Sequence record: OZ336094.1
Length of the DNA stretch: 64,000 bases
From: a phage
Reading direction: 5' to 3' (one strand)
Within the stretch, counting starts at the first letter, position 1. Each line of letters starts with the position of its first letter. The notes beneath the pieces were generated by a model. It was not told the DNA's origin, did not search any database, and saw nothing but the letters and a program-made list of their open reading frames with translations. This document shows, in pieces, positions 43,104-61,829 of the stretch. The position numbers and the translations under genes are program-made.

Positions 43104-43373
43104 CTAAAATGATTCGTTTGTCTCCATAATATATTGCATTTCCAAATCTTCCATATGTTTCTTAAATTGGTAAACAATTTCCGATGGGGAAATATCTATA
43201 TCAAAAAGTTCTTTTGTACCAGAATAAAATCTAATACCATCAACAATAAGACCACCATAATAATCCCAATCACTTTCTCGTGAGAAAGGATTAGGTTCTT
43301 CATAATAGTAATCTACTTCAACAATAATAGGTTCTTTATTATCTTGTTTATACTCAAAATCAAAAGTGTTCAT
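43104..43373 (-). CDS. Hypothetical protein
   Basis: 89-aa acidic ORF. Confidence 0.35.
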   Translation of the reverse strand: MNTFDFEYKQDNKEPIIVEVDYYYEEPNPFSRESDWDYYGGLIVDGIRFYSGTKELFDIDISPSEIVYQFKKHMEDLEMQYIMETNESF

Positions 43374-44317: not shown

Positions 44318-44328
44318 ATAGCTCCTTA

Positions 44329-46053: not shown

Positions 46054-46062
46054 AATAACTCC

Positions 46063-46626
46063 TTAAATAATTTTATTCATGTCTTGACAATGTAAAAGGT
46101 GTGAAACAGCTTTTCTAGGATCATCATTACCTAAACGGTATGTGTGAAATAAATATAACCCACGTAGTAAACCTAGCCTTTTATTGTTAGCGTGCAATGC
46201 TTTAGAGAAAATTATATCAAACTGTATTGATCTTTCCTCAAAAGGGATTTCATTCCACAGACTCTTACGAAAGAGAAGAAAGAATCCTGCTAAGATAGCA
46301 TCTGTAGGTACTTCCTCTATTGAGTTTCCCCATTCTAGATGTGCTCTTTTTGCAATCTCAATGTGGTGTAATATATTCGGATCTTCACTTCTTTCATTAT
46401 TAAATAATTGATATGTTGATCCCAATCTGTTACAAGATGCACCAAGAACATCAAAATCAGGATTTGAACGGACAATTGATTCCAGCCAAGCAGGTTGTTC
46501 TGGAAGAAGAAACATTGTATCAATGTCTCTTAGGCAAATCCAACTATCTTCTGGTAAGACACTTATTGTGTCATTGATACCTTTTCCAATATCTCCAGAA
46601 AGATAGGGAGTTATGTGAAATATCAT
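46063..46626 (-). CDS. Hypothetical protein, possibly glycosyltransferase-related
   Basis: 187-aa ORF co-linear with the glycosyltransferase genes; LRDIDTMF may be a DxD-like motif (weak). Confidence 0.3.
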   Translation of the reverse strand: MIFHITPYLSGDIGKGINDTISVLPEDSWICLRDIDTMFLLPEQPAWLESIVRSNPDFDVLGASCNRLGSTYQLFNNERSEDPNILHHIEIAKRAHLEWGNSIEEVPTDAILAGFFLLFRKSLWNEIPFEERSIQFDIIFSKALHANNKRLGLLRGLYLFHTYRLGNDDPRKAVSHLLHCQDMNKII

Positions 46627-47374: not shown

Positions 47375-47884
47375 TTAGCGATAGAATTGATGTTCTTTGT
47401 AGCGGTACACTAGAACCATATCTTTTTCCCAGTGTGCTCTTATTGTAGATTTTTTAAAGTATAATGCTCCTTTTGTAATATCTAATGCAATTCGTAATTC
47501 TGGAAAATGCGTATCGAGATAAAGTAGACGTTCTGCTATAGCCTTAGCTTCCTTCCACTTATCACGTTCCATAACGTTGAATGTCTTTGTGTAAGAGAAT
47601 TGTCCTTTTTGAAACAAAACTTCTTTTATAGTATCAGGGAAATATGAATCTCTAGCCCTATTCAATACTACATTACCAACAGCAGACATACCGCGCTTTC
47701 CTTGATTACGACTTTCTGCATAGATTGCACAAGCTAATAGATTTTCTTTACTATCACGCTTTGTACACTTGTGAACTACTTTAGCAGTTTTTACGTTTGC
47801 AGCTTCGGCTTGCGCCACAACAGGTGTAAATGTAAAAGCAGTTAAGGATAGTAACGCAATTGCGACAAAGGTTTTTATTGACAA
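47375..47884 (-). CDS. Secreted cell-wall hydrolase (SleB/Hydrolase_2-like), candidate endolysin
   Basis: N-terminal signal peptide (MSIKTFVAIALLSLTAFTFTPVVAQA); motifs ACAIYAESRNQG and GMSAVGNVVLNR. Confidence 0.5.
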   Translation of the reverse strand: MSIKTFVAIALLSLTAFTFTPVVAQAEAANVKTAKVVHKCTKRDSKENLLACAIYAESRNQGKRGMSAVGNVVLNRARDSYFPDTIKEVLFQKGQFSYTKTFNVMERDKWKEAKAIAERLLYLDTHFPELRIALDITKGALYFKKSTIRAHWEKDMVLVYRYKEHQFYR

Positions 47885-47977: not shown

Positions 47978-48580
47978 TTAGATGTTGTAAACCTTCGTAT
48001 GAGTTACTACACCATCTTCTACAAAATCAATACGTTCTTGATCCGTAACTAGTGCAGACAATACTTTAAATTTAATTGTTACACGTTCAAAAGCTGGTTG
48101 ACCATCTTTAAGATAATTATGTTCAGTTGTTACTGTCTTGTTTACAAAATCAACTTTTGCTTTACCGTTTTCGCGTAGGTGGAATGTTTTTCCTGCTTTG
48201 TACACAATTTCAACATTACCTTCGAGAGTAATTCCTTCAAAAAGTTCACCCTCTTCTTCATTTTCTTCATTTTTGAACAGACGACGAAACTCTTCCATAT
48301 CAAGATAAACAACATCTTCAGAATAACTATCAGTAAGGTATGTCTTACCATCCATTAACCCGAAATATTGCCAGATTGCAGAATAAACATCACTAGTTGA
48401 TCCAAGGGTTTCTCTGAGTTTAGTTCCACGGATTACTTCATAAACTTCAAAATTGAAACCAGACTGCAAAGCATTAAACAGTACATCACTAACTTCTAAA
48501 GCATAATCTTCATTGTTGTCAATATCCACAAGAAAATTACCGCTACGAATAAGTTTTTGACCTTCTAAAGTAATACCCAT
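47978..48580 (-). CDS. Hypothetical protein
   Basis: 200-aa acidic ORF. Confidence 0.4.
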   Translation of the reverse strand: MGITLEGQKLIRSGNFLVDIDNNEDYALEVSDVLFNALQSGFNFEVYEVIRGTKLRETLGSTSDVYSAIWQYFGLMDGKTYLTDSYSEDVVYLDMEEFRRLFKNEENEEEGELFEGITLEGNVEIVYKAGKTFHLRENGKAKVDFVNKTVTTEHNYLKDGQPAFERVTIKFKVLSALVTDQERIDFVEDGVVTHTKVYNI

Positions 48581-48607
48581 TGTTTTCTCCTCTTTTATTT
48601 AAAATAT

Positions 48608-48623
48608 GCGCCCCGAAGGGCGC
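48608..48623 (-). terminator. Terminator hairpin downstream of the TerD-like gene
   Basis: gcgccc-cgaa-gggcgc (UUCG loop on the minus transcript) followed by an A/T-rich tract. Confidence 0.45.
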
Positions 48624-48632
48624 TATGATTTA

Positions 48633-49229
48633 TTACTCGAACCAATCGTCGCCAGCGCCAAACGCTTTAACTACATCATAAATGTCAAGTCCAGCTTTAC
48701 CTACACCATATGCTTTCAGTTTCCATTCGCTATCTTCCCGCACCAGGGAGGCAACGTGGCAAATGGTGTTACCTGCAAGTTCTGGAGCCAAGAAATCAAA
48801 ATCCAGCAGTTCAACGTTACGTTCATCATCGAAGATTTTAAGGAAACCTTCGGTAGCGTGACCAAGGCGTTTTTTACCCGTTTCGTCATCAATAGTAATT
48901 ACGAATGCAATTTCCTGTGCTTCAGCAGAGATATTATCCAGTGTAACATCAATCTGCTCCATCTGTCCTACACCGTCACGAACATCTTCACCTGCAAAAG
49001 TAGAACGTTCAGGATCAAATTTCTGTGCGTAGCATACCAGGTGGCGAGGAGACAACAGTTCCGGCAGACCAGATGCATTGTGTCGGCAAATCAGAGCACT
49101 AACATCCAGATCCAGTTTTTCGTTAGATTTCCAAGAGAATTCCAGACGAATGCGTTTCAGTGCTGGTGCAATCTTTTTCAGAGAAACTTTTTCGCTAGAA
49201 CCTTTTTTCAGGGAAATTTTCTGAGTCAT
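48633..49229 (-). CDS. terD: TerD-family protein
   Basis: ISLKKGSSEKVSLKK, LDLDVSALI, ITIDD and EWKLKAYGVG align with hallmark TerD blocks (VSLSKG..VSLSK, FDLDASAFL, VTIHD, EWKFRAVGQG). Confidence 0.75.
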   Translation of the reverse strand: MTQKISLKKGSSEKVSLKKIAPALKRIRLEFSWKSNEKLDLDVSALICRHNASGLPELLSPRHLVCYAQKFDPERSTFAGEDVRDGVGQMEQIDVTLDNISAEAQEIAFVITIDDETGKKRLGHATEGFLKIFDDERNVELLDFDFLAPELAGNTICHVASLVREDSEWKLKAYGVGKAGLDIYDVVKAFGAGDDWFE

Positions 49230-49301
49230 AATTTATTATCTCCTTTGTTGTTAATTTACGTTGTCTATTTTACTAATCTTTTCTACAAAGTCAAGCGTTT
49301 T

Positions 49302-50096
49302 TTACGCTTTTGCTCCAAATTTTTTAACCCACTCACCAAACTCTTCGGATAGCAGTTTATCGTAAAGTTCTTCGTCAGACAAGGACAAATCTGCAATACC
49401 GATAAAATCAACATTATCGTATTCTTTTGCCAAGTCTTTCAGGAATTTAAAGTTTGCATTGCCTACACCAACCATAAACCAGTAAACAGGAGTGTTGCGG
49501 TGTTTGTTCAGCAAACTACGTACTGCTGAAGTATCCATGTTCTCCCCGTCAGTTTGGAAGAAAATCATTGCAGGAGTACGATCAACTTGTGCATCAGTAT
49601 CTACAACCTGTTCTACAACAGTACGTGTAACTTCTACACGTTCTTTTTTACCAGTTAGTTTAGCAAGGAAACCCTTAGCCGGAACTTCTTCATACTCAAC
49701 GACTTCGCGTGTAATATTTTTCATAGGTACACTACCGAAGTATGTATCATAGATCTCTTGCATTACTGGGGCATAAGCTGTACCACCATTGATGCAAACA
49801 TTAGACATACAAGAGCCGACATAATCATCATATACATCAGCCGTTGCAGGAGGCAGTTCAAAAGAAGAACTATTGAAAGCCCACATGTCAATCTGTGCAT
49901 TATCATCAAACTTCATACCAAACGGCAGCAGTTTACCTACAAAATCACTAACAGTGCCATCACGATACAGCTCACACATACTACCCGAAATATCTAAGGC
50001 ACTACCGACACGAAGAACAACATCGTTAATCTTTTTCTTACGCAGAGATACGGTAAGAGTTTCTTGACGTTTTTTAAGACTGATTTTATTGGACAT
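49302..50096 (-). CDS. vWA-domain protein (TerY-like)
   Basis: MIDAS-like motifs: ALDISGSM, GGTAYAPV, IFFQTDGEN. Confidence 0.5.
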   Translation of the reverse strand: MSNKISLKKRQETLTVSLRKKKINDVVLRVGSALDISGSMCELYRDGTVSDFVGKLLPFGMKFDDNAQIDMWAFNSSSFELPPATADVYDDYVGSCMSNVCINGGTAYAPVMQEIYDTYFGSVPMKNITREVVEYEEVPAKGFLAKLTGKKERVEVTRTVVEQVVDTDAQVDRTPAMIFFQTDGENMDTSAVRSLLNKHRNTPVYWFMVGVGNANFKFLKDLAKEYDNVDFIGIADLSLSDEELYDKLLSEEFGEWVKKFGAKA

Positions 50097-50097
50097 A

Positions 50098-50367
50098 TTA
50101 TTTCTCCTTTCTGAGTGTAATGTTAGTAACTTCTAAATCCACTTCTACCATTTCTGTATCATACGAAATACAGCTAAGTTGACCTCTTTGCGAACCGTTC
50201 AGACACATTGCTTGGTTTGTATTAACCTTAATAAACACTAAGTTTCTGAACGTATCTAAACCAGAATCTTGATAGGCAACATAATATACAAATGTATCAC
50301 CTACGTCAAGTTCTCCAAAACATTTAGGTTCATCTGATTTGTCGTCTTTGATATTAAATTTAAGCAC
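50098..50367 (-). CDS. Hypothetical protein
   Basis: 89-aa ORF translationally coupled to neighbours. Confidence 0.3.
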   Translation of the reverse strand: MLKFNIKDDKSDEPKCFGELDVGDTFVYYVAYQDSGLDTFRNLVFIKVNTNQAMCLNGSQRGQLSCISYDTEMVEVDLEVTNITLRKEK

Positions 50368-50923
50368 TGTCTTCTCCTTTACCTGCTCTCAAGCCTAAAT
50401 AGAAAGCCTCTCTGGTGATCTTTTGCAACTCGTTTAAAGAGATAGTTACAACTAAATCATCTTCAATTTCTAGCTTTGAGTCTTCTTCTGTCTCAATGCA
50501 AGTATTATGCACTTTGTGGTAAGGATTGTCAACACGTTTAAATTTATTATTTTCAGTGCTGAAGAAGCAATCTGGATCTTCTTCCCCATCACCCCAACCC
50601 TGGTTAGGATCTTCTTCAGATCTTTCTGTTGGGATCTCGCCTGTAAAGTGCTCTTCTAATACCAGAGCAATCCCATCTCCAAGATCGGAAGAGAACATCA
50701 AATTACAAACTTCTTCCCAAGGCATAGACCACTTAAATCTTTTACGATTGCCATGTTTATCTTCTTCGTTAGAGAAAACACTACCATAGCTATCATAATT
50801 CCCATACATCTCTTCGACTACCTTACCACCTTTCAAAAGAAATAGGTAGCAAGGAGAGCCATCGAAAGAGGTAGAAAGAGCAGCATTACCAGACTCTTTG
50901 CACAAGAAACTAAAACACCCCAT
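50360..50923 (-). CDS. Hypothetical acidic protein
   Basis: 187-aa ORF. Confidence 0.35.
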   Translation of the reverse strand: MGCFSFLCKESGNAALSTSFDGSPCYLFLLKGGKVVEEMYGNYDSYGSVFSNEEDKHGNRKRFKWSMPWEEVCNLMFSSDLGDGIALVLEEHFTGEIPTERSEEDPNQGWGDGEEDPDCFFSTENNKFKRVDNPYHKVHNTCIETEEDSKLEIEDDLVVTISLNELQKITREAFYLGLRAGKGEDSA

Positions 50924-51123
50924 TATACACCAGCCTTAAGATCAATTAAAGCCAAAGTTGTTTCAGAGTGTGTTTGCTCGTCTACAGGTGCAGTCATATG
51001 ATAATACAAAAAATCTTCGGCATCATACCAATCTGATTCTTGACCTTGTTTCCAACCATCAATGAAAGCATCTTCCACAATGGTTTGCAATTCTTCACGA
51101 GTTAAGTGAATATCTTTACTCAT
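50923..51123 (-). CDS. Hypothetical small protein
   Basis: 66-aa ORF, coupled. Confidence 0.3.
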   Translation of the reverse strand: MSKDIHLTREELQTIVEDAFIDGWKQGQESDWYDAEDFLYYHMTAPVDEQTHSETTLALIDLKAGV

Positions 51124-51356
51124 TACACATTCTCCTCTTTTACCAATTCCATTGTTGAATTGTCAAAACCATCTTTAGAAGAATAGGTATAGACAGAACG
51201 TAGTTCTCGCAGGACAGTGAATACATTAGGATCATCTAACCAAGCATCCTGGAGGAGAACATAACGATCTTCATTGTCATATTGAACAGCAATCATAGAA
51301 CCAGACAGTTTGTAAATTTTAATATTCATAATATATTTCTCCTTAAAGTAGACCAC
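51123..51356 (-). CDS. Hypothetical small protein
   Basis: 77-aa ORF, coupled. Confidence 0.3.
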   Translation of the reverse strand: MVYFKEKYIMNIKIYKLSGSMIAVQYDNEDRYVLLQDAWLDDPNVFTVLRELRSVYTYSSKDGFDNSTMELVKEENV

Positions 51357-52446
51357 GTTTAACAGTTTGAATCATACCATCTTCAAGAGATTGCACTTCT
51401 TGAATGTAATCAATACGAGCAGCACGGGCTTCAGTGTTGATTCGGTTAGTTTCTTCCAACATTTTAACTAAGTTTTCTTGATCACGACGCAATGTTTCAA
51501 TATCCAATACTTGACGATTAGCAAGTTGTGTAGCTTCAATTTGGTTTTGTGCAGCCAGATCACTACCCATTGCAATAGCAGCATTAAATTCATTCAGTAC
51601 ATTGTTCTGTGTATCGGCTGCTTTCTTCTGGCGTAGACTTTCAATATACATAGAAAAGTTTGCAGAGTAAGCAGGAATAACATTATTCACAATATTACGG
51701 GCTGATCGCATCAAACTTGCAGATACTTTCTGCATACTTTGTACACGTGGCCCCATCTGAACACACAGTAAACGCAAGGCTTTCAGATCTGCAATACGAA
51801 TTTCAAGCAGATCCATAGTATCACGAGTACGTTGACGCTCTTCTACTTCATTTTCAGGTAGTGTATTAAGGCGAACTTCTTCTTTTTCATAAGTAGCTGT
51901 TAGAAGCTCTATATCCCTGTTTAAGCTAAGAGCATATTTTGCAATAGCTTCCTCTAAACGTTGCAGATATCGTAAAGAATCTTCTTCTTTTTTCAAGTCT
52001 GTTTGGAGTGTCTTTACCAAACCTTCAATACGGTTATTGATGGTGTCAAATTCTCCAAACAAATCTTCTTTCATACCTAAAACTTTCTTAACTAGTTTAC
52101 CTAAACCTTTAGATTGTTTAATAGAGTTAGGATCAAGTTGCTTTGCTTGCTTAATAAGCGCAGTTAAACGTTCACTCATTTCATCTCCCTGAGATGAACG
52201 CTGGTGTTTAAGCACTTCAGCATTAAGGTTACGAAGAGTAAGTCCTGCATCAGCACCAACCTGTTCAATCTCTTCACGAGACATTGGAGGCAGCATTTGT
52301 ACAGGGCGTGCAACAGCAGGGGCATATACAGGGCTTGCATCCATAGCACTTGGAGCAAACAAAGACTTACTTTTTTCTGTTGTTGCCGTGAATACACTCA
52401 TTTCAGACGGTTTGCTTTTTACGGCACTGATAAAAGGACTGGACAT
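51343..52446 (-). CDS. TelA-like toxic-anion-resistance family protein (tentative)
   Basis: 367-aa, mostly helical/coiled-coil with a disordered N-terminus; size, composition and neighbourhood (TerD, TerC) fit TelA/KlaB, but no diagnostic motif was verified. Confidence 0.4.
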   Translation of the reverse strand: MSSPFISAVKSKPSEMSVFTATTEKSKSLFAPSAMDASPVYAPAVARPVQMLPPMSREEIEQVGADAGLTLRNLNAEVLKHQRSSQGDEMSERLTALIKQAKQLDPNSIKQSKGLGKLVKKVLGMKEDLFGEFDTINNRIEGLVKTLQTDLKKEEDSLRYLQRLEEAIAKYALSLNRDIELLTATYEKEEVRLNTLPENEVEERQRTRDTMDLLEIRIADLKALRLLCVQMGPRVQSMQKVSASLMRSARNIVNNVIPAYSANFSMYIESLRQKKAADTQNNVLNEFNAAIAMGSDLAAQNQIEATQLANRQVLDIETLRRDQENLVKMLEETNRINTEARAARIDYIQEVQSLEDGMIQTVKRGLL

Positions 52447-52514
52447 TCAATTTCCTCCATATTCTTTAGTAAATGGTGATACCTCTGTACCACCATCATA
52501 ACACAAGTTAAGTA

Positions 52515-53366
52515 TTAAACAAACATATCTAAATAATTTGTAGTAATAAATGCTCCATCTGCTTCCAGATTAACATAACCCGTGGTATTAGTAGTTAAGA
52601 AATCCAGATCGAAGGACTCTTTAACACCCCGTACCTCAACACGAGAGATATCGAATACAGGTAGTGTAACAGCCTCTTCGTGCAATACCGTACCTTTGTA
52701 GGTTGCCTTAATGATAAACTTGATATTACCTGTTCCAGCATCATATAAAACACTTTCAAACCCTTTGAGAGTATATTTATCACCAGAAGTGAAGTGCAAA
52801 GTTGCTTTGTTTACAGTACGTTTCTTACGAGGAGTTCCTTTCACACGTTTATGATCACTACGTTTTTTGTATTTAGGAATGAATACAAACGATACACTCT
52901 CAAGAAAGGTATCAACATCAAGGATTTTAATATCCTCTGTTGCAGCAAATTTTGAAGTCGTTGCATCAAAATGCTTTTCCCTGCGATCATACATAAAGAT
53001 ATCAAACCGATCTTCTAAATCAAACAAATTATGTATTTTAATTTCAGAATGCTTGCGCATTGCAGCAACCTTGAACTCTTCAAAACGTGGGTGTTCTACA
53101 AGTTCTTCAAGTTTTACACCAAAGACAGTATATTGCTTCGAAGTCTTTTCTGGTGTTGGCATTACAGAAGCATAGTCCCCGATTGCGCTCTTAAAGCAAA
53201 ATTGTTCTTGACCTGTATTTTTACCAACGAATTTACAGTATTCGTCATTGTGCATACTTTCCTTAGTAGTACCAACAAACTCAAAACCATCTTTATTCTT
53301 CTCAAGAATTTCTTGATTAAAAATCCAACCTTCCAGGCGATACACTTTACCAACTTCTAGTTTCAT
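52515..53366 (-). CDS. Hypothetical protein
   Basis: 283-aa ORF. Confidence 0.4.
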   Translation of the reverse strand: MKLEVGKVYRLEGWIFNQEILEKNKDGFEFVGTTKESMHNDEYCKFVGKNTGQEQFCFKSAIGDYASVMPTPEKTSKQYTVFGVKLEELVEHPRFEEFKVAAMRKHSEIKIHNLFDLEDRFDIFMYDRREKHFDATTSKFAATEDIKILDVDTFLESVSFVFIPKYKKRSDHKRVKGTPRKKRTVNKATLHFTSGDKYTLKGFESVLYDAGTGNIKFIIKATYKGTVLHEEAVTLPVFDISRVEVRGVKESFDLDFLTTNTTGYVNLEADGAFITTNYLDMFV

Positions 53367-53401
53367 CTGTTTCTCCTTCTTATTTAATCTGTATTAAATT
53401 A

Positions 53402-53992
53402 TTAACGACGACGTGAGCTACTAAAACTACGTTTCGACGAAGAATAACTTTTCGAAGACTTACTATAAGAGCTAATAGGGCTTGAGTAAGACTTACGAGC
53501 AGAGTAATCACTATTCACTTTTGTTGTTGACGGGCGTGAATACGTTTGTACACTTTGCTGCTTAATTGTGTTTTGTTTAGTGGTTGTATATGTATTCCCT
53601 TGTTTATCATAAAAACGATGCTTTTGTGTTGTATATGCTTTACTATTAGTTGTAGGAGCAGCGTTGTTATTGATAATTGTTGTATTGCTACCGCCATCTC
53701 TATAACCACCACCGCCACTATTACCACTCAACATATGACCAAGAAGCATACCTGTAGCAAACTCACCTACACCAGAAGAACCACTACCGCCTCCTTGCAC
53801 AACAACTGTTGAAGGTTGTGCAGGTGCTGCTTGAACAACTTGAGGTGCAGGCTGATTTACATATTGTTCATCTACCATCTGATTTGGTGTTTGTTGGTAA
53901 CGTTGATTTTGTACATTTTCAGAATCATCACAACCTACCAGCAATGCACTACCTAAAACAACTGCAACAATAAAAGATTTAATGTTTTTCAT
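53402..53992 (-). CDS. Putative lipoprotein with Ser/Tyr-rich low-complexity tail
   Basis: Start at MKNIKS (GAGAGGG RBS); signal peptide with lipobox LLVGC; C-terminus SYSSPISSYSKSSKSYSSSKRSFSSSRRR. Confidence 0.5.
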   Translation of the reverse strand: MKNIKSFIVAVVLGSALLVGCDDSENVQNQRYQQTPNQMVDEQYVNQPAPQVVQAAPAQPSTVVVQGGGSGSSGVGEFATGMLLGHMLSGNSGGGGYRDGGSNTTIINNNAAPTTNSKAYTTQKHRFYDKQGNTYTTTKQNTIKQQSVQTYSRPSTTKVNSDYSARKSYSSPISSYSKSSKSYSSSKRSFSSSRRR

Positions 53993-54078
53993 TTGTAACC
54001 CTCTCATTTAAAGTCTCAACACAATTTTTAAAATCCCTAGAGAAACAATACATCTGTTCTCCGTTCCTGTTGATAGTA

Positions 54079-54107
54079 ATTGTATGGTTATCAATATATG
54101 TTGTCAA
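54079..54107 (-). promoter_or_regulatory. Near-consensus sigma70 promoter on the minus strand
   Basis: Minus strand reads TTGACA, 17-nt spacer, TACAAT; about 80 nt upstream of the lipoprotein start codon. Confidence 0.5.
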
Positions 54108-54200
54108 GATAAAAATCAAACAAAACAACCCTAGAGCAAAACAAATATTTTCAAACAGAATCCAAAGAACACGTAAAACCACCATCAGATCACCTCAACA

Positions 54201-54218
54201 AAGCCCCCGAAGGGGCTT
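54201..54218 (-). terminator. Terminator hairpin downstream of terC
   Basis: aagcccc-cgaa-ggggctt; exact reverse complement of the 32035 hairpin. Confidence 0.5.
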
Positions 54219-54224
54219 AATGAA

Positions 54225-55202
54225 TTAAGCAACAGTCTGGTCTTCTTTTTCAGGGAAGATTAAACTTGCAACAACACCCAACCCAAGAGTACCTAACACA
54301 ATATACATACTGATCGTCGGATCAATGTGTGCTGGCAGGAAACTGACTTTTGCGTGCAGAGTTTCTGCAAACGGGTGATACATCAGTTTTACACCCACAA
54401 ACACCAGGACTACGATAACTGCTTTCTCCAGATGAACCAAATACTTCAGTGCAACACTAAGAACAAAGAACAGAGCACGTAAACCTAAGATTGCACAGAG
54501 CATCGAAGAGAACACCAGTAGAGGTTCTTGTGTCACTGCAATTACTGCTGGAACAGAGTCTACTGCAAAGATTACGTCAACCATTTCCATTACAAACACA
54601 CAAACCAGAGCCGGAGTTGCTACACGAACACCATTTTTGATTGTGAAGAACTTCTCACCATCCATCTGATCAGATACAGGGAACAGCTTACGAACAATGC
54701 GAGTAGCCCAGTGTTTAGAGTAATCAACTTCTGCATCATTATCTCCAGCGAATACCATTTTAGCCGCACAGAAAAGGATGACAGCACCGAAGAAGATATT
54801 AACATACCAGCCCAAACTCAACAAGTAAGTACCTACTGCTACAAACACACCTCGGAAGACAATCGCACCTGCAATACCCCAAAGTAGAATCTTGTGCTGC
54901 AAGTGTGTGCTTTTAATACCAAAACTTGCGAAGACTGCCACAAATACTACTAAGTTATCTACAGAAAGAGATTTCTCCAACACATACCCACTCAAAAACA
55001 AGCTCGCAAAATCAGCACCGTGTTGGAAGTATACAAAACCATAGTAGGCTAATGATACCCCAATCCAGAAAATTGACCAGCCAATTGCAGATTTAAATGA
55101 AATTTCTTTGTTTTCTCTGTGTCCAAAGAAGTCAATACAAATCGACAAGACTAAAATACCCACTAAAACAACCACATCAATAATTGGGAAACCCAGTTGC
55201 AT
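54225..55202 (-). CDS. terC: TerC-family integral membrane protein
   Basis: Multi-pass membrane protein with TerC signature blocks (YVLEKSLSVDNLVVFVAVF and EMVDVIFAVDSVPAVIAVT). Confidence 0.7.
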   Translation of the reverse strand: MQLGFPIIDVVVLVGILVLSICIDFFGHRENKEISFKSAIGWSIFWIGVSLAYYGFVYFQHGADFASLFLSGYVLEKSLSVDNLVVFVAVFASFGIKSTHLQHKILLWGIAGAIVFRGVFVAVGTYLLSLGWYVNIFFGAVILFCAAKMVFAGDNDAEVDYSKHWATRIVRKLFPVSDQMDGEKFFTIKNGVRVATPALVCVFVMEMVDVIFAVDSVPAVIAVTQEPLLVFSSMLCAILGLRALFFVLSVALKYLVHLEKAVIVVLVFVGVKLMYHPFAETLHAKVSFLPAHIDPTISMYIVLGTLGLGVVASLIFPEKEDQTVA

Positions 55203-55220
55203 TCTTTTCTCCTCTTTAAT

Positions 55221-55239
55221 GCGGAGGACAATCCTCCGC
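55221..55239 (-). promoter_or_regulatory. Hairpin between the upstream gene and the terC RBS
   Basis: gcggagg-acaa-tcctccgc stem-loop; no clear T-tract. Confidence 0.3.
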
Positions 55240-55279
55240 TCTATGTCTTATACTATAAACTGTTTTTAAAGAAAGTCAA

Positions 55280-55528
55280 CTAGTTCAGTTCTGTAATTTT
55301 AAGTTTATCTTCTTTGTTAATGATAGGGAAAGCTACAGCATCACCTACGTCATCAATAAAGCAAATAGCAATACCACCTTCCACTTTGCTAATCTGACCA
55401 TTAAAGGCGTGATACGGGGCAGGAACTTGATCTCCATCTTCAAGGAGAATAGCCTCGTAAACCTTGCCGATAGTACAATCACGAGTGTTTCTAAATTTTT
55501 CAAGCACTTCAACATTTACTTTACGCAT
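55280..55528 (-). CDS. Hypothetical protein
   Basis: 82-aa ORF. Confidence 0.35.
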   Translation of the reverse strand: MRKVNVEVLEKFRNTRDCTIGKVYEAILLEDGDQVPAPYHAFNGQISKVEGGIAICFIDDVGDAVAFPIINKEDKLKITELN

Positions 55529-55542
55529 ATAAAAATCCTCTC

Positions 55543-55749
55543 TTATTTGTTAGATTGAAAGATACCACGAAGTACCGCAAGAATGAACGTCACACAGACT
55601 ACACTCCAAAACGTTACAGGAACATGATGCCAGTCTAAGCCGATAATGTCAATCATATAATTGTATGCTAAAAGCAGTAGCCAACTAGGGATTAACACAA
55701 TCAAGAACACAACAATAAAACAACCTAATACTGCTAAAACACCTGCCAT
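55543..55749 (-). CDS. Small membrane protein
   Basis: 68 aa, two hydrophobic helices. Confidence 0.35.
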   Translation of the reverse strand: MAGVLAVLGCFIVVFLIVLIPSWLLLLAYNYMIDIIGLDWHHVPVTFWSVVCVTFILAVLRGIFQSNK

Positions 55750-55758
55750 ACTTTCTCC

Positions 55759-56475
55759 TTATTTCAGTTTGTAAACAATTACATTTAAACCTTTGTTTAC
55801 TAGAGTTTCTTCGATCATAAGTTTTACAATATTCCAAGAACCTCCAGCCAAACCACAACCAAGCATTGGTAAACCTACAATTTTACCGCCTGAAGATACA
55901 ACATCGTCTCCCATACTATCTAACGCATTGTAGATAGCTTCATAATTCAGGTCACGCTTACCTTCCTCACGACGACTATAACCATATTGTCCATATAAAT
56001 TATAAATTGTCAAATTGTTTTCTGTATACTTGGTAAACGTACCTAATTTTTTATAATCACCACGTTTAGTGGCACAATCTGCTTTAAACGCACCAGGCCA
56101 CTTACTTTTAATTTTTGGTGCAATACCACTACCCATAGTGCAAAAACAGTTACAGCAGTGTGCTATAGCGTCTATATCGCCTCTCTCGGCTGCTGCTAAA
56201 AGATCACCGTATACCTCAATGATACCTGCTGGATAACTTGTTACAATTTCATCTTCCCAGTACATTTTCTCTACACCACCGATCAGTGCAAAGTTTTGTG
56301 TAATGCGATCATCAATATAGTTAAGACCTGAAACATACACAGCATATTCATCCTGTGCTGTAATACCTTGTACACGAATTCTTAAGACACCATCTTTATC
56401 TGTTGCTACACGCCCAAAATCTTTTTCTGTAATATTGGTGATAGGATCTCCGAAAGTCATTACTTTATTAGACAT
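55759..56475 (-). CDS. Macro-domain protein (ADP-ribose-binding/processing type)
   Basis: DAIAHCCNCFCTMGSGIAPKI resembles the macro motif DAIVNAAN..LxGGGGV..AI; GLPMLGCGLAGGSW resembles the IAFP.ISTG.YG block; start chosen at MSNKV (AAAGGGGA RBS). Confidence 0.45.
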   Translation of the reverse strand: MSNKVMTFGDPITNITEKDFGRVATDKDGVLRIRVQGITAQDEYAVYVSGLNYIDDRITQNFALIGGVEKMYWEDEIVTSYPAGIIEVYGDLLAAAERGDIDAIAHCCNCFCTMGSGIAPKIKSKWPGAFKADCATKRGDYKKLGTFTKYTENNLTIYNLYGQYGYSRREEGKRDLNYEAIYNALDSMGDDVVSSGGKIVGLPMLGCGLAGGSWNIVKLMIEETLVNKGLNVIVYKLK

Positions 56476-57325
56476 AATAATCCCCTTTAACATTAGATTT
56501 GTTGATAATGTTGCTTTCAAAAAATTGACGTAGGAAATCAAAGTTCTCTTTATATTTTTCAATATTATTGTAGCCTTCTGCAAGGCAACCAAAGAACAGT
56601 TGTTCTACATAATACAAAGGAAGCTGTGAAAGTGCAATTTTAAAATCAACTTCGCTTTGACTCATTAGATACTTAATAGGACGAACCAAACATTTAGCAT
56701 CAGTTTCTTGCTTAATCATTTTAATAAAAGCTGCCAGGTTATTGATGTAGTTGAAGTTAAGTGCAGCTTCGGTGTTGGCTTCTGTACCTTCATACTTTGC
56801 AAAGTACAGGAAAAACGTATCGTTTTCAACACCTTCTTTGTCTAAAATTTCAATAAGTTTTTCTTCGTGCGTTCCTGTAATATTAACATCATCAATGAAA
56901 ATCAGAGTTTTATTACCCCAGAAATCACGATTGATAGAGAAAGTGTCACCATCGATCAAAGCCTTACGATCTTCTTTGCTAAGAAATCCATAATCATTGA
57001 TATAGCTCACTTTACGATGAACGATATCCCACTCCACGGCTTTACCTCCTTTGATAGAGATTAGGTAGTTGAGGTGATCTACAAAATGTTCAGATAACAC
57101 TGTAGCTGCATTTTTCACATAGTTATATGGAGATGGAATAACAACAAAACTTTCATTTACCAGTCGTTCTTCATACTTGGAAAAGAAACTTTCAGCCAGA
57201 ATGCGCCCCATTCTTTTTGCTGCCTGGTTACTACCAAACTTTAGCTTGGAATAATCTGCAATGTTAAATTTTGCTTCCTTCAGGTTAGTAAAAGTATTAG
57301 CAAAATGTTGAATTTGATTACGCAT
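56468..57325 (-). CDS. Type I phosphoribosyltransferase
   Basis: PRPP-binding loop LIFIDDVNITGTHEEK. Confidence 0.55.
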   Translation of the reverse strand: MRNQIQHFANTFTNLKEAKFNIADYSKLKFGSNQAAKRMGRILAESFFSKYEERLVNESFVVIPSPYNYVKNAATVLSEHFVDHLNYLISIKGGKAVEWDIVHRKVSYINDYGFLSKEDRKALIDGDTFSINRDFWGNKTLIFIDDVNITGTHEEKLIEILDKEGVENDTFFLYFAKYEGTEANTEAALNFNYINNLAAFIKMIKQETDAKCLVRPIKYLMSQSEVDFKIALSQLPLYYVEQLFFGCLAEGYNNIEKYKENFDFLRQFFESNIINKSNVKGDYYV

Positions 57326-57974
57326 TAATAAGTTCCTCTTTTTTAAGTTTAGCCAACAAGTCTTCTGGATTAATAATATGACAGAACTTCATCCCTATGT
57401 CAACAGCTTTTCCATCATAAATCAAACTATCTCCAACGTGTAAAATCTCCTCTGGTGCGAGATCAAACGTTACCATTTCATCAAAAGAGAGTTTAAAAAA
57501 CCTGGGATCTGGTTTACACAAGCAAAACTCATCAGAAAAATGCATAAAATCGAATGGTAATTTTGTCAAGCCAGAATATACAGCTAAGAAACTACCAGGT
57601 ACAAAATTGGTATTGCTCTTAATACTCAAAGAATAGGTTGAACTTAGCTCTTCCAACTTCTTGCAAAGTTCAGGATTCAATGTTGGAGGATGTTTTATAA
57701 ACATTGCTAAACAGTCTCTTTTTAACCCATCCACTTTATCAAGATCAATGTTCAAACGAGTAGAAAGTGTTACCCAAGCATCCTTAGACGTTCCACAAAT
57801 GCCTTTTTCTGCTTTTAAATCCAGGAGAGTTTTTACCTCTTTATATACGGTAGCTGCTTCTACCTCAGAACAAGAGGCATACTCGGCAATAACCTTGTTG
57901 CGTTCTTCTGCATACAAAGGATTAGCAGTAATAAGAGTATTCCATACATCAAAAGAAATATGCTTAACAGTCAT
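57318..57974 (-). CDS. HAD-superfamily hydrolase (phosphatase-like)
   Basis: N-terminal ISFDVWNTL (HAD motif I) and C-terminal HVGDS; start at MTVKH after a GGAGGA RBS. Confidence 0.55.
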   Translation of the reverse strand: MTVKHISFDVWNTLITANPLYAEERNKVIAEYASCSEVEAATVYKEVKTLLDLKAEKGICGTSKDAWVTLSTRLNIDLDKVDGLKRDCLAMFIKHPPTLNPELCKKLEELSSTYSLSIKSNTNFVPGSFLAVYSGLTKLPFDFMHFSDEFCLCKPDPRFFKLSFDEMVTFDLAPEEILHVGDSLIYDGKAVDIGMKFCHIINPEDLLAKLKKEELINA

Positions 57975-58143
57975 TTTTAATCCTCCGTCCAAAAGAATAT
58001 CATCTGCTTAATTTTATTGATCTCTTGATGTAGTAACTTTCCAGCATGTGATTGATCTTTAATATTGACAGCAAGAATTTCAAGCTCCGTTAGTTTTTCT
58101 TGGATAGCTTTATATTCATCATCTGTAAGCATTTTCTTCCCCT

Positions 58144-58347
58144 TTAGAATGGTAATCTTTGTATGTCACTTATCCCCACACCAAGAAGTCTAGCAATATC
58201 CTTATCTAAAAGCAACTCTTTTTGTTCTAAAATGTTAATCAGATCTCCTAATACTTCTTTAATGTCACGATCATTTTTAGCAACGTGACCACCTGCGGTA
58301 TCAACTTTATCTTTAAAAACAAAATAATGATCCATAATACCCTCCAT
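58144..58347 (-). CDS. Hypothetical small protein
   Basis: 67-aa ORF. Confidence 0.3.
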   Translation of the reverse strand: MEGIMDHYFVFKDKVDTAGGHVAKNDRDIKEVLGDLINILEQKELLLDKDIARLLGVGISDIQRLPF

Positions 58348-58353
58348 ATAAAT

Positions 58354-58375
58354 AAAGGAGGCTTTCGCCTCCTTT
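58354..58375. terminator. Terminator hairpin
   Basis: aaaggaggc-tttc-gcctccttt with T-rich flanks on both strands. Confidence 0.4.
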
Positions 58376-58381
58376 TATCAC

Positions 58382-59542
58382 TTAGTAAGAACGACCACCA
58401 AACACATACTCTGTGTAGTTTTTACGTTCTTTGTTTTTAATAACAACTTCAATGTTGTTACCTTTATCATCGGTGAACATAAAGTGATAACCGTCACCAC
58501 CCATTGTACGAATGTGTTTTTCATCATACGTTAGCAAGATACGGTCTACACCCCAGTAGTAGTCACCTTCTTCATCTTTATCTTCTACAGTAACGATCCC
58601 TTCCATTTCAGGAAGATGCTCTTCTCCTGACTTATGATCTACAGCTACAACATAACGATTACCGCTAAACAAACCTTGTGCTGTCATACCGTCAATATCG
58701 GTATCTGACGAAACATCTCCTGTACGATCTACACCGTTAACTTTCAGAAGTTTAACTTCTTTTGCAGCATAGCGGTGTTCAGTAATACTGATACCCATTA
58801 ATGCAAGTGCATCAGAGAATTTGTCATTAGGGTAACGGTTAAGTTCTTCTACTAATGACTGAACAATATCAAAGTTCAAATCCACGGAGAGATTATAAAG
58901 CGTTTCAAAATCTGGTAAGAAGGCTTTGTTCTCCAGATTTTTAGCCAGATAATCATCCATAGTAGCTTTAGGTAGTTTCTTATAGCTAAAACTGTAGAAA
59001 ATACGGCTAGGACGATTACGCAAAAATTCTGATACATAACCATCATTTTTAGTCAATACAAACAGTTTGTCGTAGCCACCAACACCATCCAGCAGGGTAA
59101 GCAAACCATCTTGTGCATCTTTTTCAGCATACAGTTTATCAAATTCATCGATCATAATCATCACAGGTTGTGTGATTTTAGACATAAAGTTGATAAAGCC
59201 TTCACCATTAAAAGCACTACCGATAGAAATAGTAGGAATACCCATTTCACGAAGAGCAGAAGACAGCATTTTAGCTTGCAAAGTTTTACCGCTACCTTTC
59301 GTACCCTCAAGGAGAACACCTGTGTTTTTACCTTTGCGGCTAAGGAACGTCTTGATAATACGTTCTGATTTATCATCAGTATCACCGTATGTTACTGAAG
59401 GGACTTCCATATCGTTTTTAGGATACAGGAAGAACTCGCCACTTTGAGTAACACCTACACCAAAAGTTCCTGCTGGAATTTCTTCAATATCTGTACCAGA
59501 CTTCTGACGCAGGAAGATTTGATTGCCGAATACTGTAAACAT
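58382..59542 (-). CDS. P-loop ATPase of unknown function
   Basis: Walker A GTKGSGKT and Walker B-like IMIDEFDK; 386 aa. Confidence 0.45.
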   Translation of the reverse strand: MFTVFGNQIFLRQKSGTDIEEIPAGTFGVGVTQSGEFFLYPKNDMEVPSVTYGDTDDKSERIIKTFLSRKGKNTGVLLEGTKGSGKTLQAKMLSSALREMGIPTISIGSAFNGEGFINFMSKITQPVMIMIDEFDKLYAEKDAQDGLLTLLDGVGGYDKLFVLTKNDGYVSEFLRNRPSRIFYSFSYKKLPKATMDDYLAKNLENKAFLPDFETLYNLSVDLNFDIVQSLVEELNRYPNDKFSDALALMGISITEHRYAAKEVKLLKVNGVDRTGDVSSDTDIDGMTAQGLFSGNRYVVAVDHKSGEEHLPEMEGIVTVEDKDEEGDYYWGVDRILLTYDEKHIRTMGGDGYHFMFTDDKGNNIEVVIKNKERKNYTEYVFGGRSY

Positions 59543-59562
59543 AGTTTTCTCCTCTATTTAAT

Positions 59563-60033
59563 TTAGTCAGATTCCCAAATGTTGTCTTTCTTAACCCACA
59601 TTCGTTGATTATCTGAACCTCTATAACGTTTCGTTGTTGGTTGATTCATATCATACTTACCATCTATCACTATGTCAACCAGTTTTTTAATTTTTTCTGG
59701 AATTTCTTCAAAAAGATATCCTGTATATAAAACAATATCTTTTTTGTTTCCAAAACAATCTCTTACCTTCTCAAGAACATACTCTACAGTATCAATGTTC
59801 TCTTTGTCAAGAGGTTCACCACCTAAAACTGTTAATCCTTTAATGAAAGGTCGAGATAAATCTTTCAAGATAAGATCTAATGTTTCAGCAGTGAACTCTT
59901 GTCCGTAGTTATACGACCAGGCTTTCTGGTTAAAGCAGCCACGGCAACCGTGGCTACAACCGCTCACCCACAAAGAGCATCTTACACCGTCACCGTTGAG
60001 CATGTCAACAGGTTCATATCCGGCGTAATTCAA
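59563..60033 (-). CDS. nrdG: Anaerobic ribonucleotide reductase activating protein (radical SAM)
   Basis: CxxxCxxC cluster (CSHGCRGCFN); overlaps and follows nrdD. Confidence 0.7.
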   Translation of the reverse strand: MNYAGYEPVDMLNGDGVRCSLWVSGCSHGCRGCFNQKAWSYNYGQEFTAETLDLILKDLSRPFIKGLTVLGGEPLDKENIDTVEYVLEKVRDCFGNKKDIVLYTGYLFEEIPEKIKKLVDIVIDGKYDMNQPTTKRYRGSDNQRMWVKKDNIWESD

Positions 60034-61829
60034 AAGTGTTTCTCCCTTTCTAGTACCTCTTGCATTTTACCTTTATTATAAGGGCGAGAGTTAGGGGCAG
60101 AAAGGTATCCTGACACTCTTCTGATCACAGATATGGATTCTTCTTCATGATTACCGCAACTTGGACACTCGAAGCCTTTAGCCGTTGCTTTAAATTCACC
60201 ATGAAAACCACATTTGAAACACTGATCTACAGGTTGGTTCACACCAAAATAAGGAATTTTGTTGTAGGCATAATCTACAAGAGTTTCCAGTGCTTGCAAG
60301 TTATGTTTAAGGTTTGGTGTTTCTACATAACCTATGTTCCCACCATTACTGATTTGTGCAAAACCTTCCTCATAATCCCACTTTTGGAACGGGGTAGTGT
60401 GCATCCACACAGGTTGATGGAAAGAGTTTGTCAAGTAGTCACGATCAATAGAACCAGGATAGCGATCATTTAATGCTTTGGCAAATTTATAGCACAAGGA
60501 TTCTGCTGGTGTTCCATACAAACTAAAAGCTAAACCAGAACGTTCTTTAAATGTGCCACAGATATCCTTCATATATTGAAGGATGTTTTTACCCATTGCT
60601 TTTGGATTGGTGTTACCTGGGTATAAAATCTCCATAGCTTCTGCTAAACCTACATAACCGATACTAATAGAGGCATAACCACCTTCAAATAGTTTACCAA
60701 TCTCTTCATTAGCTTCTAGTCGAGCTAAAGCCCCTTCCATAAACAATGTAGGGTTTTGAGATGCTTTGGTATGTCTGATACGGTTAACACGTAGCATATG
60801 TGCCTTATACGCCATCTCCATATGTTGTTCCAACAATTCAGTAAATAAGATGCCCTTTTCACGGGACTCTGCTGCAATGATAGGTAAGTTTAAAGAAACT
60901 ACGCCTAAGTTGAAACGACCATCATATTTTTCACCTTGCTCTGTTGCATAGTATGACAAGAAGCTACGGCAACCCATGCTTGTGACGCGACCATCTGAAG
61001 ATCCTGTAACTTCTTTGTTTAAAGGTACAGAGATAAAATCAGGATAAATGCGTTCAGCACAACACTCCATCGCCAGTTGCTTCAGATCATAATTTGGATC
61101 GCCAGCTTTCATGTTAACACCATCTTCCAAGAAGAAGATAACTTTAGGAAACACAGGAGTTACCCTATCTTTTCCTAATCCTTGTTTGTGCACCATTAGG
61201 TAGTTTTTAGTGATCATTCTACCAAAAGCAGAGGTATCCAAACCTAAACTAATTGTTATAAAAGGTGACTGACCATTTACACTCATTAGAGTGTTCACCT
61301 GGTAGATTAAAGTTTGCATTGCATCATAGACCTGTTTATCTACCATACGCATAGCAATATCATAATCGCCAACATCGGCATATATTTTATTAAAACTTGC
61401 TTTAACGTATTGACTAAGCCCAGTATCAACATGTGCACAAGTTTGTCCACCATATTGGCTAGAAGCTACTGCTTGAATAATTTGAGTTAGGACAGTAGTC
61501 GCTACACCGATAGATTTTGGTTTTTCAATATGTGCATTACCAATACGGAAACCGTTCTCAAGCATATCTTGGTAATTTACCAGGCAACAATTAGTTAAAG
61601 GTGAGAGTAAATAATCTAAATCGTGGATGTGACCATACCCACTTTTATGCCATTCTGCTAAATCTTCCGGTAAAATATGGGTCATTGCCATGTGCTTGCT
61701 TAGGATACCTGCTAGTAAATCTCGGTGAGTATTAACAATCATTGCAGGTTTGTTTGCATTTTCACGAGTAAATTCTTCGGATGTTTGTTCGAGGAATCCG
61801 ATTACATCCTCATATAGTTTTTGGGTCAT
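60030..61829 (-). CDS. nrdD: Anaerobic ribonucleoside-triphosphate reductase
   Basis: 599 aa; C-terminal glycyl-radical motif (IRRVSGYL) and zinc ribbon (CFKCGFHGEF ... CPSCG). Confidence 0.8.
   Translation of the reverse strand: MTQKLYEDVIGFLEQTSEEFTRENANKPAMIVNTHRDLLAGILSKHMAMTHILPEDLAEWHKSGYGHIHDLDYLLSPLTNCCLVNYQDMLENGFRIGNAHIEKPKSIGVATTVLTQIIQAVASSQYGGQTCAHVDTGLSQYVKASFNKIYADVGDYDIAMRMVDKQVYDAMQTLIYQVNTLMSVNGQSPFITISLGLDTSAFGRMITKNYLMVHKQGLGKDRVTPVFPKVIFFLEDGVNMKAGDPNYDLKQLAMECCAERIYPDFISVPLNKEVTGSSDGRVTSMGCRSFLSYYATEQGEKYDGRFNLGVVSLNLPIIAAESREKGILFTELLEQHMEMAYKAHMLRVNRIRHTKASQNPTLFMEGALARLEANEEIGKLFEGGYASISIGYVGLAEAMEILYPGNTNPKAMGKNILQYMKDICGTFKERSGLAFSLYGTPAESLCYKFAKALNDRYPGSIDRDYLTNSFHQPVWMHTTPFQKWDYEEGFAQISNGGNIGYVETPNLKHNLQALETLVDYAYNKIPYFGVNQPVDQCFKCGFHGEFKATAKGFECPSCGNHEEESISVIRRVSGYLSAPNSRPYNKGKMQEVLEREKHF

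Follow-up and report, generated by a model that had tools for sequence, protein, structure and literature searches.

Positions 48633-59542 of a 64,000-nucleotide stretch of phage DNA (record OZ336094.1; the whole stretch is called the window below) carry a set of Ter (tellurite resistance-type) genes together with a phosphoribosyltransferase/hydrolase pair. The gene set is real, conserved, and functional. Its conserved unit consists of a HAD hydrolase and a PRTase_3 phosphoribosyltransferase (PRTase) plus TerD, TerC, a von Willebrand factor A (vWA) protein, and TelA, and we are highly confident of the identity and composition of this module. As to its role, we favor, with a probability of roughly 0.4, a module made early in infection that would work at the inner membrane to exclude secondary invaders and protect the envelope. 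A preliminary description of the DNA had recognized the gene set correctly and drawn its limits only partly right. All eight genes that it named lie where it had put them, co-directional on the minus strand, and each has a Pfam match; profile searches support the TerD, TerC, TelA, vWA, Macro, PRTase, and HAD assignments.

The phage is a virulent phi92-like myophage. Escherichia phage Paula (LR865361.1), a phi92-like E. coli phage in Justusliebigvirus, Stephanstirmvirinae, matches the segment 48600-59600 with 100% identity, and more than 50 further phi92-like phages match it with 98-99% DNA identity. The genes of the conserved unit are as follows.

48633-49229, minus strand: TerD-domain protein, equivalent of phi92 gp172 (PF02342, E = 5e-28).
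49302-50096, minus strand: vWA-TerF-like protein (PF10138, E = 7e-39).
51343-52446, minus strand: TelA-like protein, predicted to be all-helical with very long helices (PF05816, E = 5e-34).
54225-55202, minus strand: TerC/Alx-family integral membrane protein (PF03741, E = 1e-38).
56468-57325, minus strand: PRTase_3, a ComF-like type I PRTase with a C-terminal helical domain (PF15610, E = 1e-41).
57318-57974, minus strand: HAD-IA hydrolase (Pfam Hydrolase, E = 1e-5; NCBIfam HAD type II, 5e-8); the open reading frame (ORF) spans 57318-57992 and the likely start is at 57974.

TerC belongs to the Alx subfamily (TIGR03718 in NCBIfam, 323 bits against a cutoff of 246) and retains both signature motifs, EKSLSVDN and MVDVIFAVDSVPA. 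The metal ion-dependent adhesion site (MIDAS) of the vWA protein, read from its sequence, is intact (D-I-S-G-S ... T ... D). The TelA match spans 318 of the 332 PF05816 profile positions, and the protein falls in phrog_5890 ('tellurite resistance', E = 1e-136); its AlphaFold2 model is poor (pLDDT 57, pTM 0.40). TelA sits in a phage-specific clade with 39-99% identity, beyond which identity falls to 21-27% against cellular TelA. TerD matches Klebsiella TerD in the Protein Data Bank (PDB 2kxt, E = 9e-15, 58 bits), and its Ca2+-site motif, GDNxTGxGDGDDE in canonical form, is degenerate (GEDVRDG--GQME). The degenerate form, G(E/D)DVRDG--GxxE, is found in all four Stephanstirmvirinae TerD sequences, and the canonical form in several other phage TerDs.

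Ratios of nonsynonymous to synonymous substitution rates (dN/dS) were calculated against the phAPEC8 orthologs. The values, which are rough because dS is saturated, are 0.13 for TerD, 0.15 for vWA, 0.10 for TelA, and 0.12 for TerC, with PRTase inside 0.09-0.15; NrdD gave 0.05 in the same comparison. By this sequence measure the core genes are under purifying selection comparable to that on the phage's own NrdD. The intact motifs (phosphoribosyl pyrophosphate [PRPP] loop, MIDAS, and TerC) and the low dN/dS indicate that the core genes are working genes and not relics.

The preliminary description spoke of a whole ensemble, and what the DNA holds is a reduced set. Pfam found a single TerD in the genes of 47978-60033 and no match to TerB, TerA/TerZ, or ATP-grasp in any of them at E ≤ 0.01, and a Pfam rescan of the ten unassigned ORFs at E ≤ 10 again gave no TerB, TerA/TerZ, or ATP-grasp. 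A TerB or ATP-grasp hidden in the equivalents of gp171, gp174-177, gp179, gp180, gp183, or gp184 was rejected after Pfam at E ≤ 10, PDB, and PADLOC searches returned nothing of the kind. PADLOC, including its TerY-P model, gave no match for TerD, vWA, TelA, TerC, PRTase, or HAD, and a known defense system carried by the phage was rejected on this ground. The only meaningful PADLOC match in the block is that of the macro domain to DarG; matches of the AAA protein and the gp179 equivalent are marginal.

The association between the enzyme pair and the Ter genes was surveyed in PRTase_3 loci from GenBank phages (157 records), IMG/VR (22 loci), and one-per-species bacterial genomes (24 loci). Locus ORFs were searched with the window proteins and with profiles built from them, and Ter genes were scored within 10 kb. 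All 21 non-redundant phage loci have HAD directly upstream of PRTase_3. Outside Stephanstirmvirinae (18 loci), TerD and TerC each occur in 9 and vWA and TelA each in 5. Gene orders vary: TerD-HAD-PRT-vWA-TerC at locus L025, TerC-HAD-PRT-..-TelA-..-TerD at L027, and vWA-TerD-..-TelA-HAD-PRT at L014. TelA was found in 246, TerC in 177, and PRTase_3 in 157 of 50,697 phage records (0.3-0.5%), and in the window they lie within 9 kb. Families this rare among phage records are not expected to co-localize by chance. The same arrangement exists in cells: two to four TerD genes surround the HAD-PRTase_3 pair in Mucilaginibacter, Bacteroidales, Tannerella, and Chitinophagales, and some of these genomes add TelA and TerC; six Bacteroidota loci have Ter genes within 10 kb of the pair. 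The link between Ter genes and the PRTase/HAD enzymes drawn in the preliminary description is thus borne out, recurring in shuffled orders in divergent phages and Bacteroidota cellular Ter loci instead of the genes being scattered without conservation. On the strength of this survey the conserved unit is defined as {HAD, PRTase_3} plus {TerD, TerC, vWA, TelA}, which coincides with the Ter hub and biosynthetic module that the Aravind group had delineated by computation. Further partners in nine divergent phage Ter loci were only extra TerD, TerC, DUF475, and TelA, with sporadic NAMPT, RNA ligase, R2K ATP-grasp, and Band_7.

Of 5,426 complete E. coli genomes, 999 have the ter-operon terC, and a search of the 5,426 found only 170-200 bp at 68-70% DNA identity to the phage terC, with no full-length match. 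No phage-type PRTase_3 was found on enterobacterial plasmids. The divergence of terC, the phage clade of TelA, and the absence of PRTase_3 from enterobacterial plasmids rule out that the genes were captured recently from alx or the ter operon of E. coli. Exchange among phages does occur: in the Phapecoctavirus phages P3322, ESCO37, phiWec190, and EP57, terC is 94-95% identical to that of Paula, compared with 71% in typical members, which points to terC exchange or recombination between the two genera. The 'Campylobacter phage' records A145, B15, and C3 (MG065645, MG065650, and MG065656; hits H28, H69, and H189) have genes that are either 99-100% identical to Justusliebigvirus or at the identity of typical Phapecoctavirus, and their host labels are probably wrong or derive from contaminants.

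The PRTase_3 and HAD genes form a distinctive enzyme pair. The PRPP loop of PRTase_3 (LIFIDDVNITGTHE) is intact. Public records label the PRTase of phi92-like phages 'putative orotate phosphoribosyltransferase' (OPRT); the family is PF15610 and not PyrE, the nearest structure is ComFC and not OPRT, and a sequence comparison with characterized PRTases gave no match. The HAD partner has FDVWNT as motif I, in which Trp replaces the general acid/base Asp. Asp+2 is the general acid/base in essentially all HAD phosphatases. The motif I pattern (F/L)D(V/L/F)W.T is present in 48/48 phage and bacterial partner sequences, with Tyr for Trp once and Asp never at +2; the other motifs (SN, KP.P, and GD...D) are those of subfamily IA. 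Its best PDB relative is 2om6, an uncharacterized P. horikoshii protein with the same FDVWNTL motif (E = 9e-25), and haloacid dehalogenases (DxY) also score. Because the motif is DxW and not DxD, a scheme in which the PRTase makes a nucleotide and the HAD then takes off its 5'-phosphate may be incorrect in its details. The HAD and PRTase_3 genes overlap by 8 nt in the window and in several other loci, and the two are translationally coupled.

Two genes that the preliminary description counted in the block fall outside the Ter unit.

55759-56475, minus strand: macro-domain protein of the TARG1/DarG/SCO6735 class (Pfam Macro, E = 3e-7); the ORF spans 55759-56592 and the true start is likely the ATG at 56475.
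58382-59542, minus strand: AAA ATPase, equivalent of phi92 gp190 (Pfam AAA, E = 1e-6; phrog_2376).

The macro protein matches DarG models (5e-13 and 1e-13 in the NCBIfam/PADLOC scans), PDB 5e3b (3e-15), and human TARG1 (3e-10). It is homologous to T4 Tk.4 (30% identity, E = 9e-18) and differs from it by an extra N-terminal segment of ~85 aa. A 2025 preprint (bioRxiv 10.1101/2025.11.20.689424) found tk.4 of T4 to be conditionally essential on hosts with DarTG2 and named the gene adfM; protection from DarTG2, or removal of ADP-ribose from DNA, has been shown for T4 Tk.4 only. Relatives of the macro protein occur in 2,991 phage records from many families, and a macro gene is near PRTase_3 only in Stephanstirmvirinae and, 8 kb off, in Xanthomonas phage XaC1. 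The macro gene overlaps the PRTase gene by 8 nt at the PRTase stop codon. From these comparisons the macro gene reads as an independent, Tk.4/AdfM-type anti-ADP-ribosylation (anti-DarT) gene that stands alone, outside the Ter core. Only Justusliebigvirus and its close relatives among Klebsiella phages carry the AAA ATPase; phAPEC8 has another gene in its place, and a terminator-like hairpin (58375-58354) follows the AAA gene. It is a separate lineage-specific gene and no part of the Ter ensemble.

Small lineage-specific genes are interleaved with the core.

50098-51329, minus strand: four small lineage-specific ORFs, equivalents of gp174-gp177, matching only PHROGs of unknown function.
52515-53366, minus strand: fast-evolving 283-aa protein, equivalent of gp179, with no Pfam, PDB, or PADLOC assignment.
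53402-53992, minus strand: predicted inner-membrane lipoprotein, equivalent of gp180 (lipobox LLVG-C with D at +2; hydropathy).
53979-54185, minus strand: small single-pass membrane protein by hydropathy, equivalent of gp181 (weak DUF6693 match, 3e-4).
55280-55749, minus strand: two small ORFs, equivalents of gp183 and gp184, matching PHROGs of unknown function; gp184, directly upstream of terC, has two transmembrane segments by hydropathy.
57977-58335, minus strand: two small ORFs heading the HAD-PRTase-macro run, equivalents of gp188 and gp189 (annotations; phrog_17780).

The N-terminal ~115 aa of the gp175 equivalent (50360-50923) form a widespread domain with 227 cluster representatives at E ≤ 1e-3 and no Pfam match. 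Its N-terminus, MGCFS.xC, is invariant, YDSYG and DPxQGWG are conserved, and its conserved cysteines suggest that it binds metal or has a nucleophile at the N-terminus; the gene is missing in L007. The gp179 equivalent is syntenic only within Stephanstirmvirinae, with 31-38% identity between genera and dN/dS of ~0.5, and a homolog search returned near-identical proteins only and none outside the subfamily. The gp180 equivalent has a low-complexity Q/S/T/G-rich body and a basic tail, and a signal peptide is annotated in phi92. The Asp at +2 predicts its retention in the inner membrane by the established Lol-avoidance rules, and a weak homolog (1e-8) lies beside the Ter genes of the divergent phage L014. 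The gp181 and gp189 equivalents are conserved within the subfamily, and gp189 is annotated as a helix-turn-helix protein in phi92.

Three regulatory elements were identified from the sequence.

55221-55279, minus strand: sigma70-like promoter (TTGACT-16-TATAGT) and GC-rich hairpin in the 5' untranslated region (UTR), directly upstream of terC.
49294-49267, minus strand: sigma70-like promoter of terD (TTGACT-16-TAAAAT).
48623-48608, minus strand: strong terminator-like hairpin after terD.

The promoter and hairpin of terC are common to Justusliebigvirus and Phapecoctavirus (L003, 13552-13620). phAPEC8 has the same layout, annotated as a host-dependent promoter, and the stem changes between phAPEC8 and the window are compensatory (GCGGAGGA/TCCTCCGC versus GCGGGGA/TCCCCGC). 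The promoter and hairpin of terD are not conserved in phAPEC8. A Mn2+ (yybP-ykoY) or other riboswitch before terC was rejected: there is no Rfam match in the window, and the 5' UTR is ~50 nt with a simple hairpin. The promoter sequences look like those of the host, which suggests transcription by host RNA polymerase and so early expression.

The phage set resembles several known systems in part. Anantharaman, Iyer, and Aravind are said to have described in 2012 a bacterial Ter-dependent stress response in which a TerD/TerC/TelA/vWA hub is joined to a PRTase/HAD 'nucleoside-like metabolite' module. The phage set has the same TerD, TerC, TelA, vWA-TerF-like, PRTase_3, and HAD families in tight linkage, and the same pair lies in Bacteroidota Ter loci. 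It differs in its reduced content (a single TerD, with TerB, TerA/TerZ, and ATP-grasp all unmatched), its virulent phage carrier, its degenerate TerD Ca2+ motif, and its lineage-specific membrane partners, the equivalents of gp179-gp181 and gp184. TerC, TerD, and a TerF-type vWA are also found in the classical terZABCDEF operon of IncHI2 plasmids and E. coli O157 islands, whose phenotypes of phage inhibition and of colicin and tellurite resistance are the functional lead; the phage set differs from it by having no TerB, TerA, TerZ, or TerE match and by the short span of terC DNA similarity. The two-enzyme logic and the order HAD then PRTase-fold are also those of CriT/CrpP in Hib capsule Bcs3 and of the T. 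composti ribofuranosyltransferase 7SHG. In capsule and O-antigen synthesis, experiments have shown that a PRPP-dependent ribofuranosyl transfer precedes dephosphorylation by a HAD enzyme (PMC10299916). The phage HAD profile matches the HAD domain of 7SHG (1.4e-8); the PRTase_3 profile does not match the transferase domain of that protein. With DxW, the phage HAD lacks the Asp+2 of true phosphatases, unlike the CriT/CrpP-type DxD HAD.

The identity and linkage of the genes are observed; the functional steps proposed here all draw on known properties of the families and on the phenotypes of plasmid ter operons. Whelan et al. reportedly found in 1995 that ter operons on plasmids inhibit phages and make cells resistant to colicins. 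TerC/Alx proteins are exporters of Mn2+. In the reading that we favor, the run from terC to vWA, and terD alone, would be transcribed early from the host-type sigma70 promoters. PRTase_3 would move ribose-5-phosphate from PRPP onto an acceptor, and the HAD would process the product to a ribosylated small molecule, the 'nucleoside-like metabolite' of the Anantharaman-Iyer-Aravind model. TerD and the MIDAS vWA protein may bind this ligand, divalent cations, or both, TelA would build a sub-membrane coiled-coil assembly, and TerC would alter divalent-cation flux (Mn2+/Ca2+ type) across the inner membrane. The altered membrane would exclude secondary invaders (superinfecting phage DNA and pore-forming colicins) and buffer envelope stress until programmed lysis, so that with this module the phage would put the Phi/PacB phenotypes of plasmid ter operons to its own use. 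The membrane focus of this reading comes from TerC, the predicted lipoprotein, and two interleaved small transmembrane proteins. Strong profile matches, intact motifs, purifying selection, and the recurrent linkage with Ter genes support it as well. The idea of exclusion and the parts given to the components follow Iyer et al. (2021; PMC7824862), and the very high transcription of TerD genes in gut jumbo phages (PMC12880540) also speaks for it.

Several observations weigh against this reading. Most of the acidic Ca2+-site motif is gone from TerD of Stephanstirmvirinae, and TerB, which is essential in classical ter operons, has no Pfam match in the cluster. The HAD partner is without the Asp+2 general acid/base. 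In Rhizobium and Caulobacter phages and on Rhizobiaceae chromosomes and plasmids, the 10 kb around HAD-PRTase_3 hold no Ter gene, so the pair can work without Ter proteins. Promoter-like sites are not enriched in the region (46 compared with 41 ± 7 in shuffles). No experiment on any phage Ter gene was found in the literature (PMC13282480, PMC11162368, and PMC7881722), and the mechanism is inferred. As an observation on the pair itself, stand-alone HAD-PRTase_3 is carried on large Rhizobium plasmids beside repA, as in Rhizobium johnstonii pRL10 (L055, 7370-8843).

It is possible, though we consider it unlikely, that the module maintains host physiology and has no part in conflict. Alx-type TerC, TerD, TelA, and vWA would then keep Mn2+/Ca2+, pH, and the envelope in balance during a long infection to maximize burst, and PRTase/HAD would tune this homeostasis via a metabolite. 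The placement of TerC in the Alx metal-homeostasis subfamily fits such a role, as do the PHROGs class of TelA and TerC ('moron, auxiliary metabolic gene and host takeover') and the size of the carrier contigs, nearly all of them large (~130-500 kb if complete). In a 2026 study of gut jumbo phages, TerD genes rank with the most strongly transcribed genes and neighbor a pspA-like and a Ca2+-ATPase gene, and this high in situ transcription in the Jug phages points the same way (PMC12880540). Homeostasis is argued against by the lack of a Mn2+ riboswitch or other Rfam element at the phage terC and by the phenotypic ties of bacterial Ter sets, which are to phage and colicin resistance and not to housekeeping, and it leaves the tight linkage of a dedicated small-molecule enzyme pair unexplained.

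Counter-defense is a doubtful alternative. The module might neutralize membrane-acting abortive-infection effectors of the host or disturb host Ter by decoy or signal hijack, with PRTase/HAD consuming or mimicking a host immune signal. Ter-positive hosts must be met often, given the 999 E. coli genomes with the ter-operon terC; the adjoining macro gene comes from a proven counter-defense family, and a NAMPT gene is near two divergent phage Ter loci. The Ter core itself has no PADLOC or defense-model match, and the same set is present in phages of many unrelated hosts. The phage proteins are also far from those of the E. coli ter operon (58 bits between TerD and Klebsiella TerD, and the 170-200 bp at 68-70% for terC), and at this distance the phage proteins are less likely to mimic partners in the host.

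A mosaic of unrelated genes, in which ordinary nucleotide salvage enzymes (an orotate-PRT-like protein and a nucleotidase) lie beside separately acquired Ter morons, is highly improbable: the pair is near NrdD/NrdG, carries the public OPRT annotation, and lacks Ter genes in some phages, but PF15610 is not PyrE, ComFC is closer than OPRT, characterized PRTases gave no match, the HAD motif is non-canonical for a nucleotidase, and the Ter co-localization recurs, shuffled, in divergent phages and Bacteroidota chromosomes. NAD+ reconstitution by macro, PRTase, and HAD in the manner of NARP1/2/3 was also considered and rejected, since NamPRT/Namat, Adps, NMNAT, and PnuC plus NadR domains are absent from the block; NARP3 consists of PnuC and NadR (PMC13464706).

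The surroundings of the cluster agree with the replication/metabolism module context that the preliminary description gave it. NrdG/NrdD (59563-61829) flank one side, and an endolysin, four glycosyltransferase genes, and a primase/helicase lie below 47900 on the other. NrdD is intact in the window (599 aa, 60030-61829), and the phi92 annotation (L002, 17449-19527) has two pieces joined across intervening sequence. The four consecutive glycosyltransferase genes (equivalents of phi92 gp163-166) and the SleB-like endolysin are downstream of the Ter genes at 43373-46626 and 47375-47884; a 'putative dTDP glycosylation machinery' has been noted in phi92-like phages, yet these are sensitive to restriction-modification (Maffei et al.). 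Over the full 64 kb, the window differs from LR865361.1 by 43 substitutions and one 77-bp tandem duplication, none of them within 48600-59600. All but 2 of the substitutions (41 of 43) fall ungapped in 1-42623, the structural-gene half. The duplication is perfect (45659-45735 and 45736-45812), lies in the glycosyltransferase gene homologous to phi92 gp165, and breaks it into ORFs 45290-45703 and 45676-46053. The unit is single-copy in GenBank Paula and in all 55 other related public records, and the duplication could be a natural variant, an assembly artifact, or an introduced change.

The preliminary description regarded the system as undescribed, and this did not hold: the phage Ter cluster is already described and is not new. 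In the phi92 annotations of 2012, gp172, gp178, and gp182 already appear as proteins for stress, toxic-anion resistance, and tellurium resistance, and a 2024 Justusliebigvirus paper on vKMB37 reported 'alx-like ter cluster genes' in phi92-like phages (PMC11162368). Iyer, Anantharaman, Krishnan, Burroughs, and Aravind (2021; PMC7824862) described phage Ter systems, including those of Caulobacter jumbo phages, found PRTase and HAD 'signal biosynthesis' enzymes with Ter in Acinetobacter phage ME3, and noted 'certain other related smaller tailed phages'. They also proposed superinfection exclusion, or competition with superinfecting phages, with roles for the components (PMC7824862), and the exclusion idea was repeated in a 2026 review (PMC13282480). 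Similar sets are reported in phiPsa374 (PMC9796965), phiKp34 (PMC8386662), and Privateer (PMC7881722). The window holds the same kind of gene set as these lytic phages, and phi92-like phages have the same genes at 98-100% DNA identity. The function remains uncharacterized in the literature, as the preliminary description had said (PMC7881722, PMC11162368, and PMC13282480). The published accounts consulted, the original phi92 paper aside, contain no tie between the phi92-type PRTase/HAD and Ter genes.

For this lineage, the analysis adds that the mis-annotated 'orotate PRTase' and 'hydrolase' go with the Ter genes and that macro and AAA do not, along with the degenerate TerD motif and the DxW motif of the HAD. 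Annotations of phi92-like phages can be corrected in these terms: 'orotate phosphoribosyltransferase' and 'hydrolase' should be grouped with the Ter set, the 'phosphatase' beside them is a Tk.4/AdfM-type macrodomain, and the AAA gene is unrelated.

Ter sets have been known since the 1980s-90s for resistance to tellurite, colicins, and phages, and to our knowledge no mechanism of a Ter system has been established. The phage set is a practical entry point to Ter biology because it is compact, under strong purifying selection, and carried by tractable phages of E. coli K-12; Bas60-62 of the BASEL collection are such phi92-like K-12 phages, and Bas63 is a Felixounavirus. As a tractable model the set is of moderate value; as a discovery, of little. 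As a long shot, HAD(DxW)/PRTase_3 might be a PRPP-dependent ribosyl-transfer machine with unusual HAD chemistry that switches a TerD/vWA/TelA/TerC inner-membrane assembly against superinfection or membrane-acting abortive infection, and the product or modified target could be a membrane lipid, a protein, or the TerD ligand. If this were true, the phi92-type cluster would, in phages that grow on K-12, make the decades-old question of Ter function tractable for the first time.

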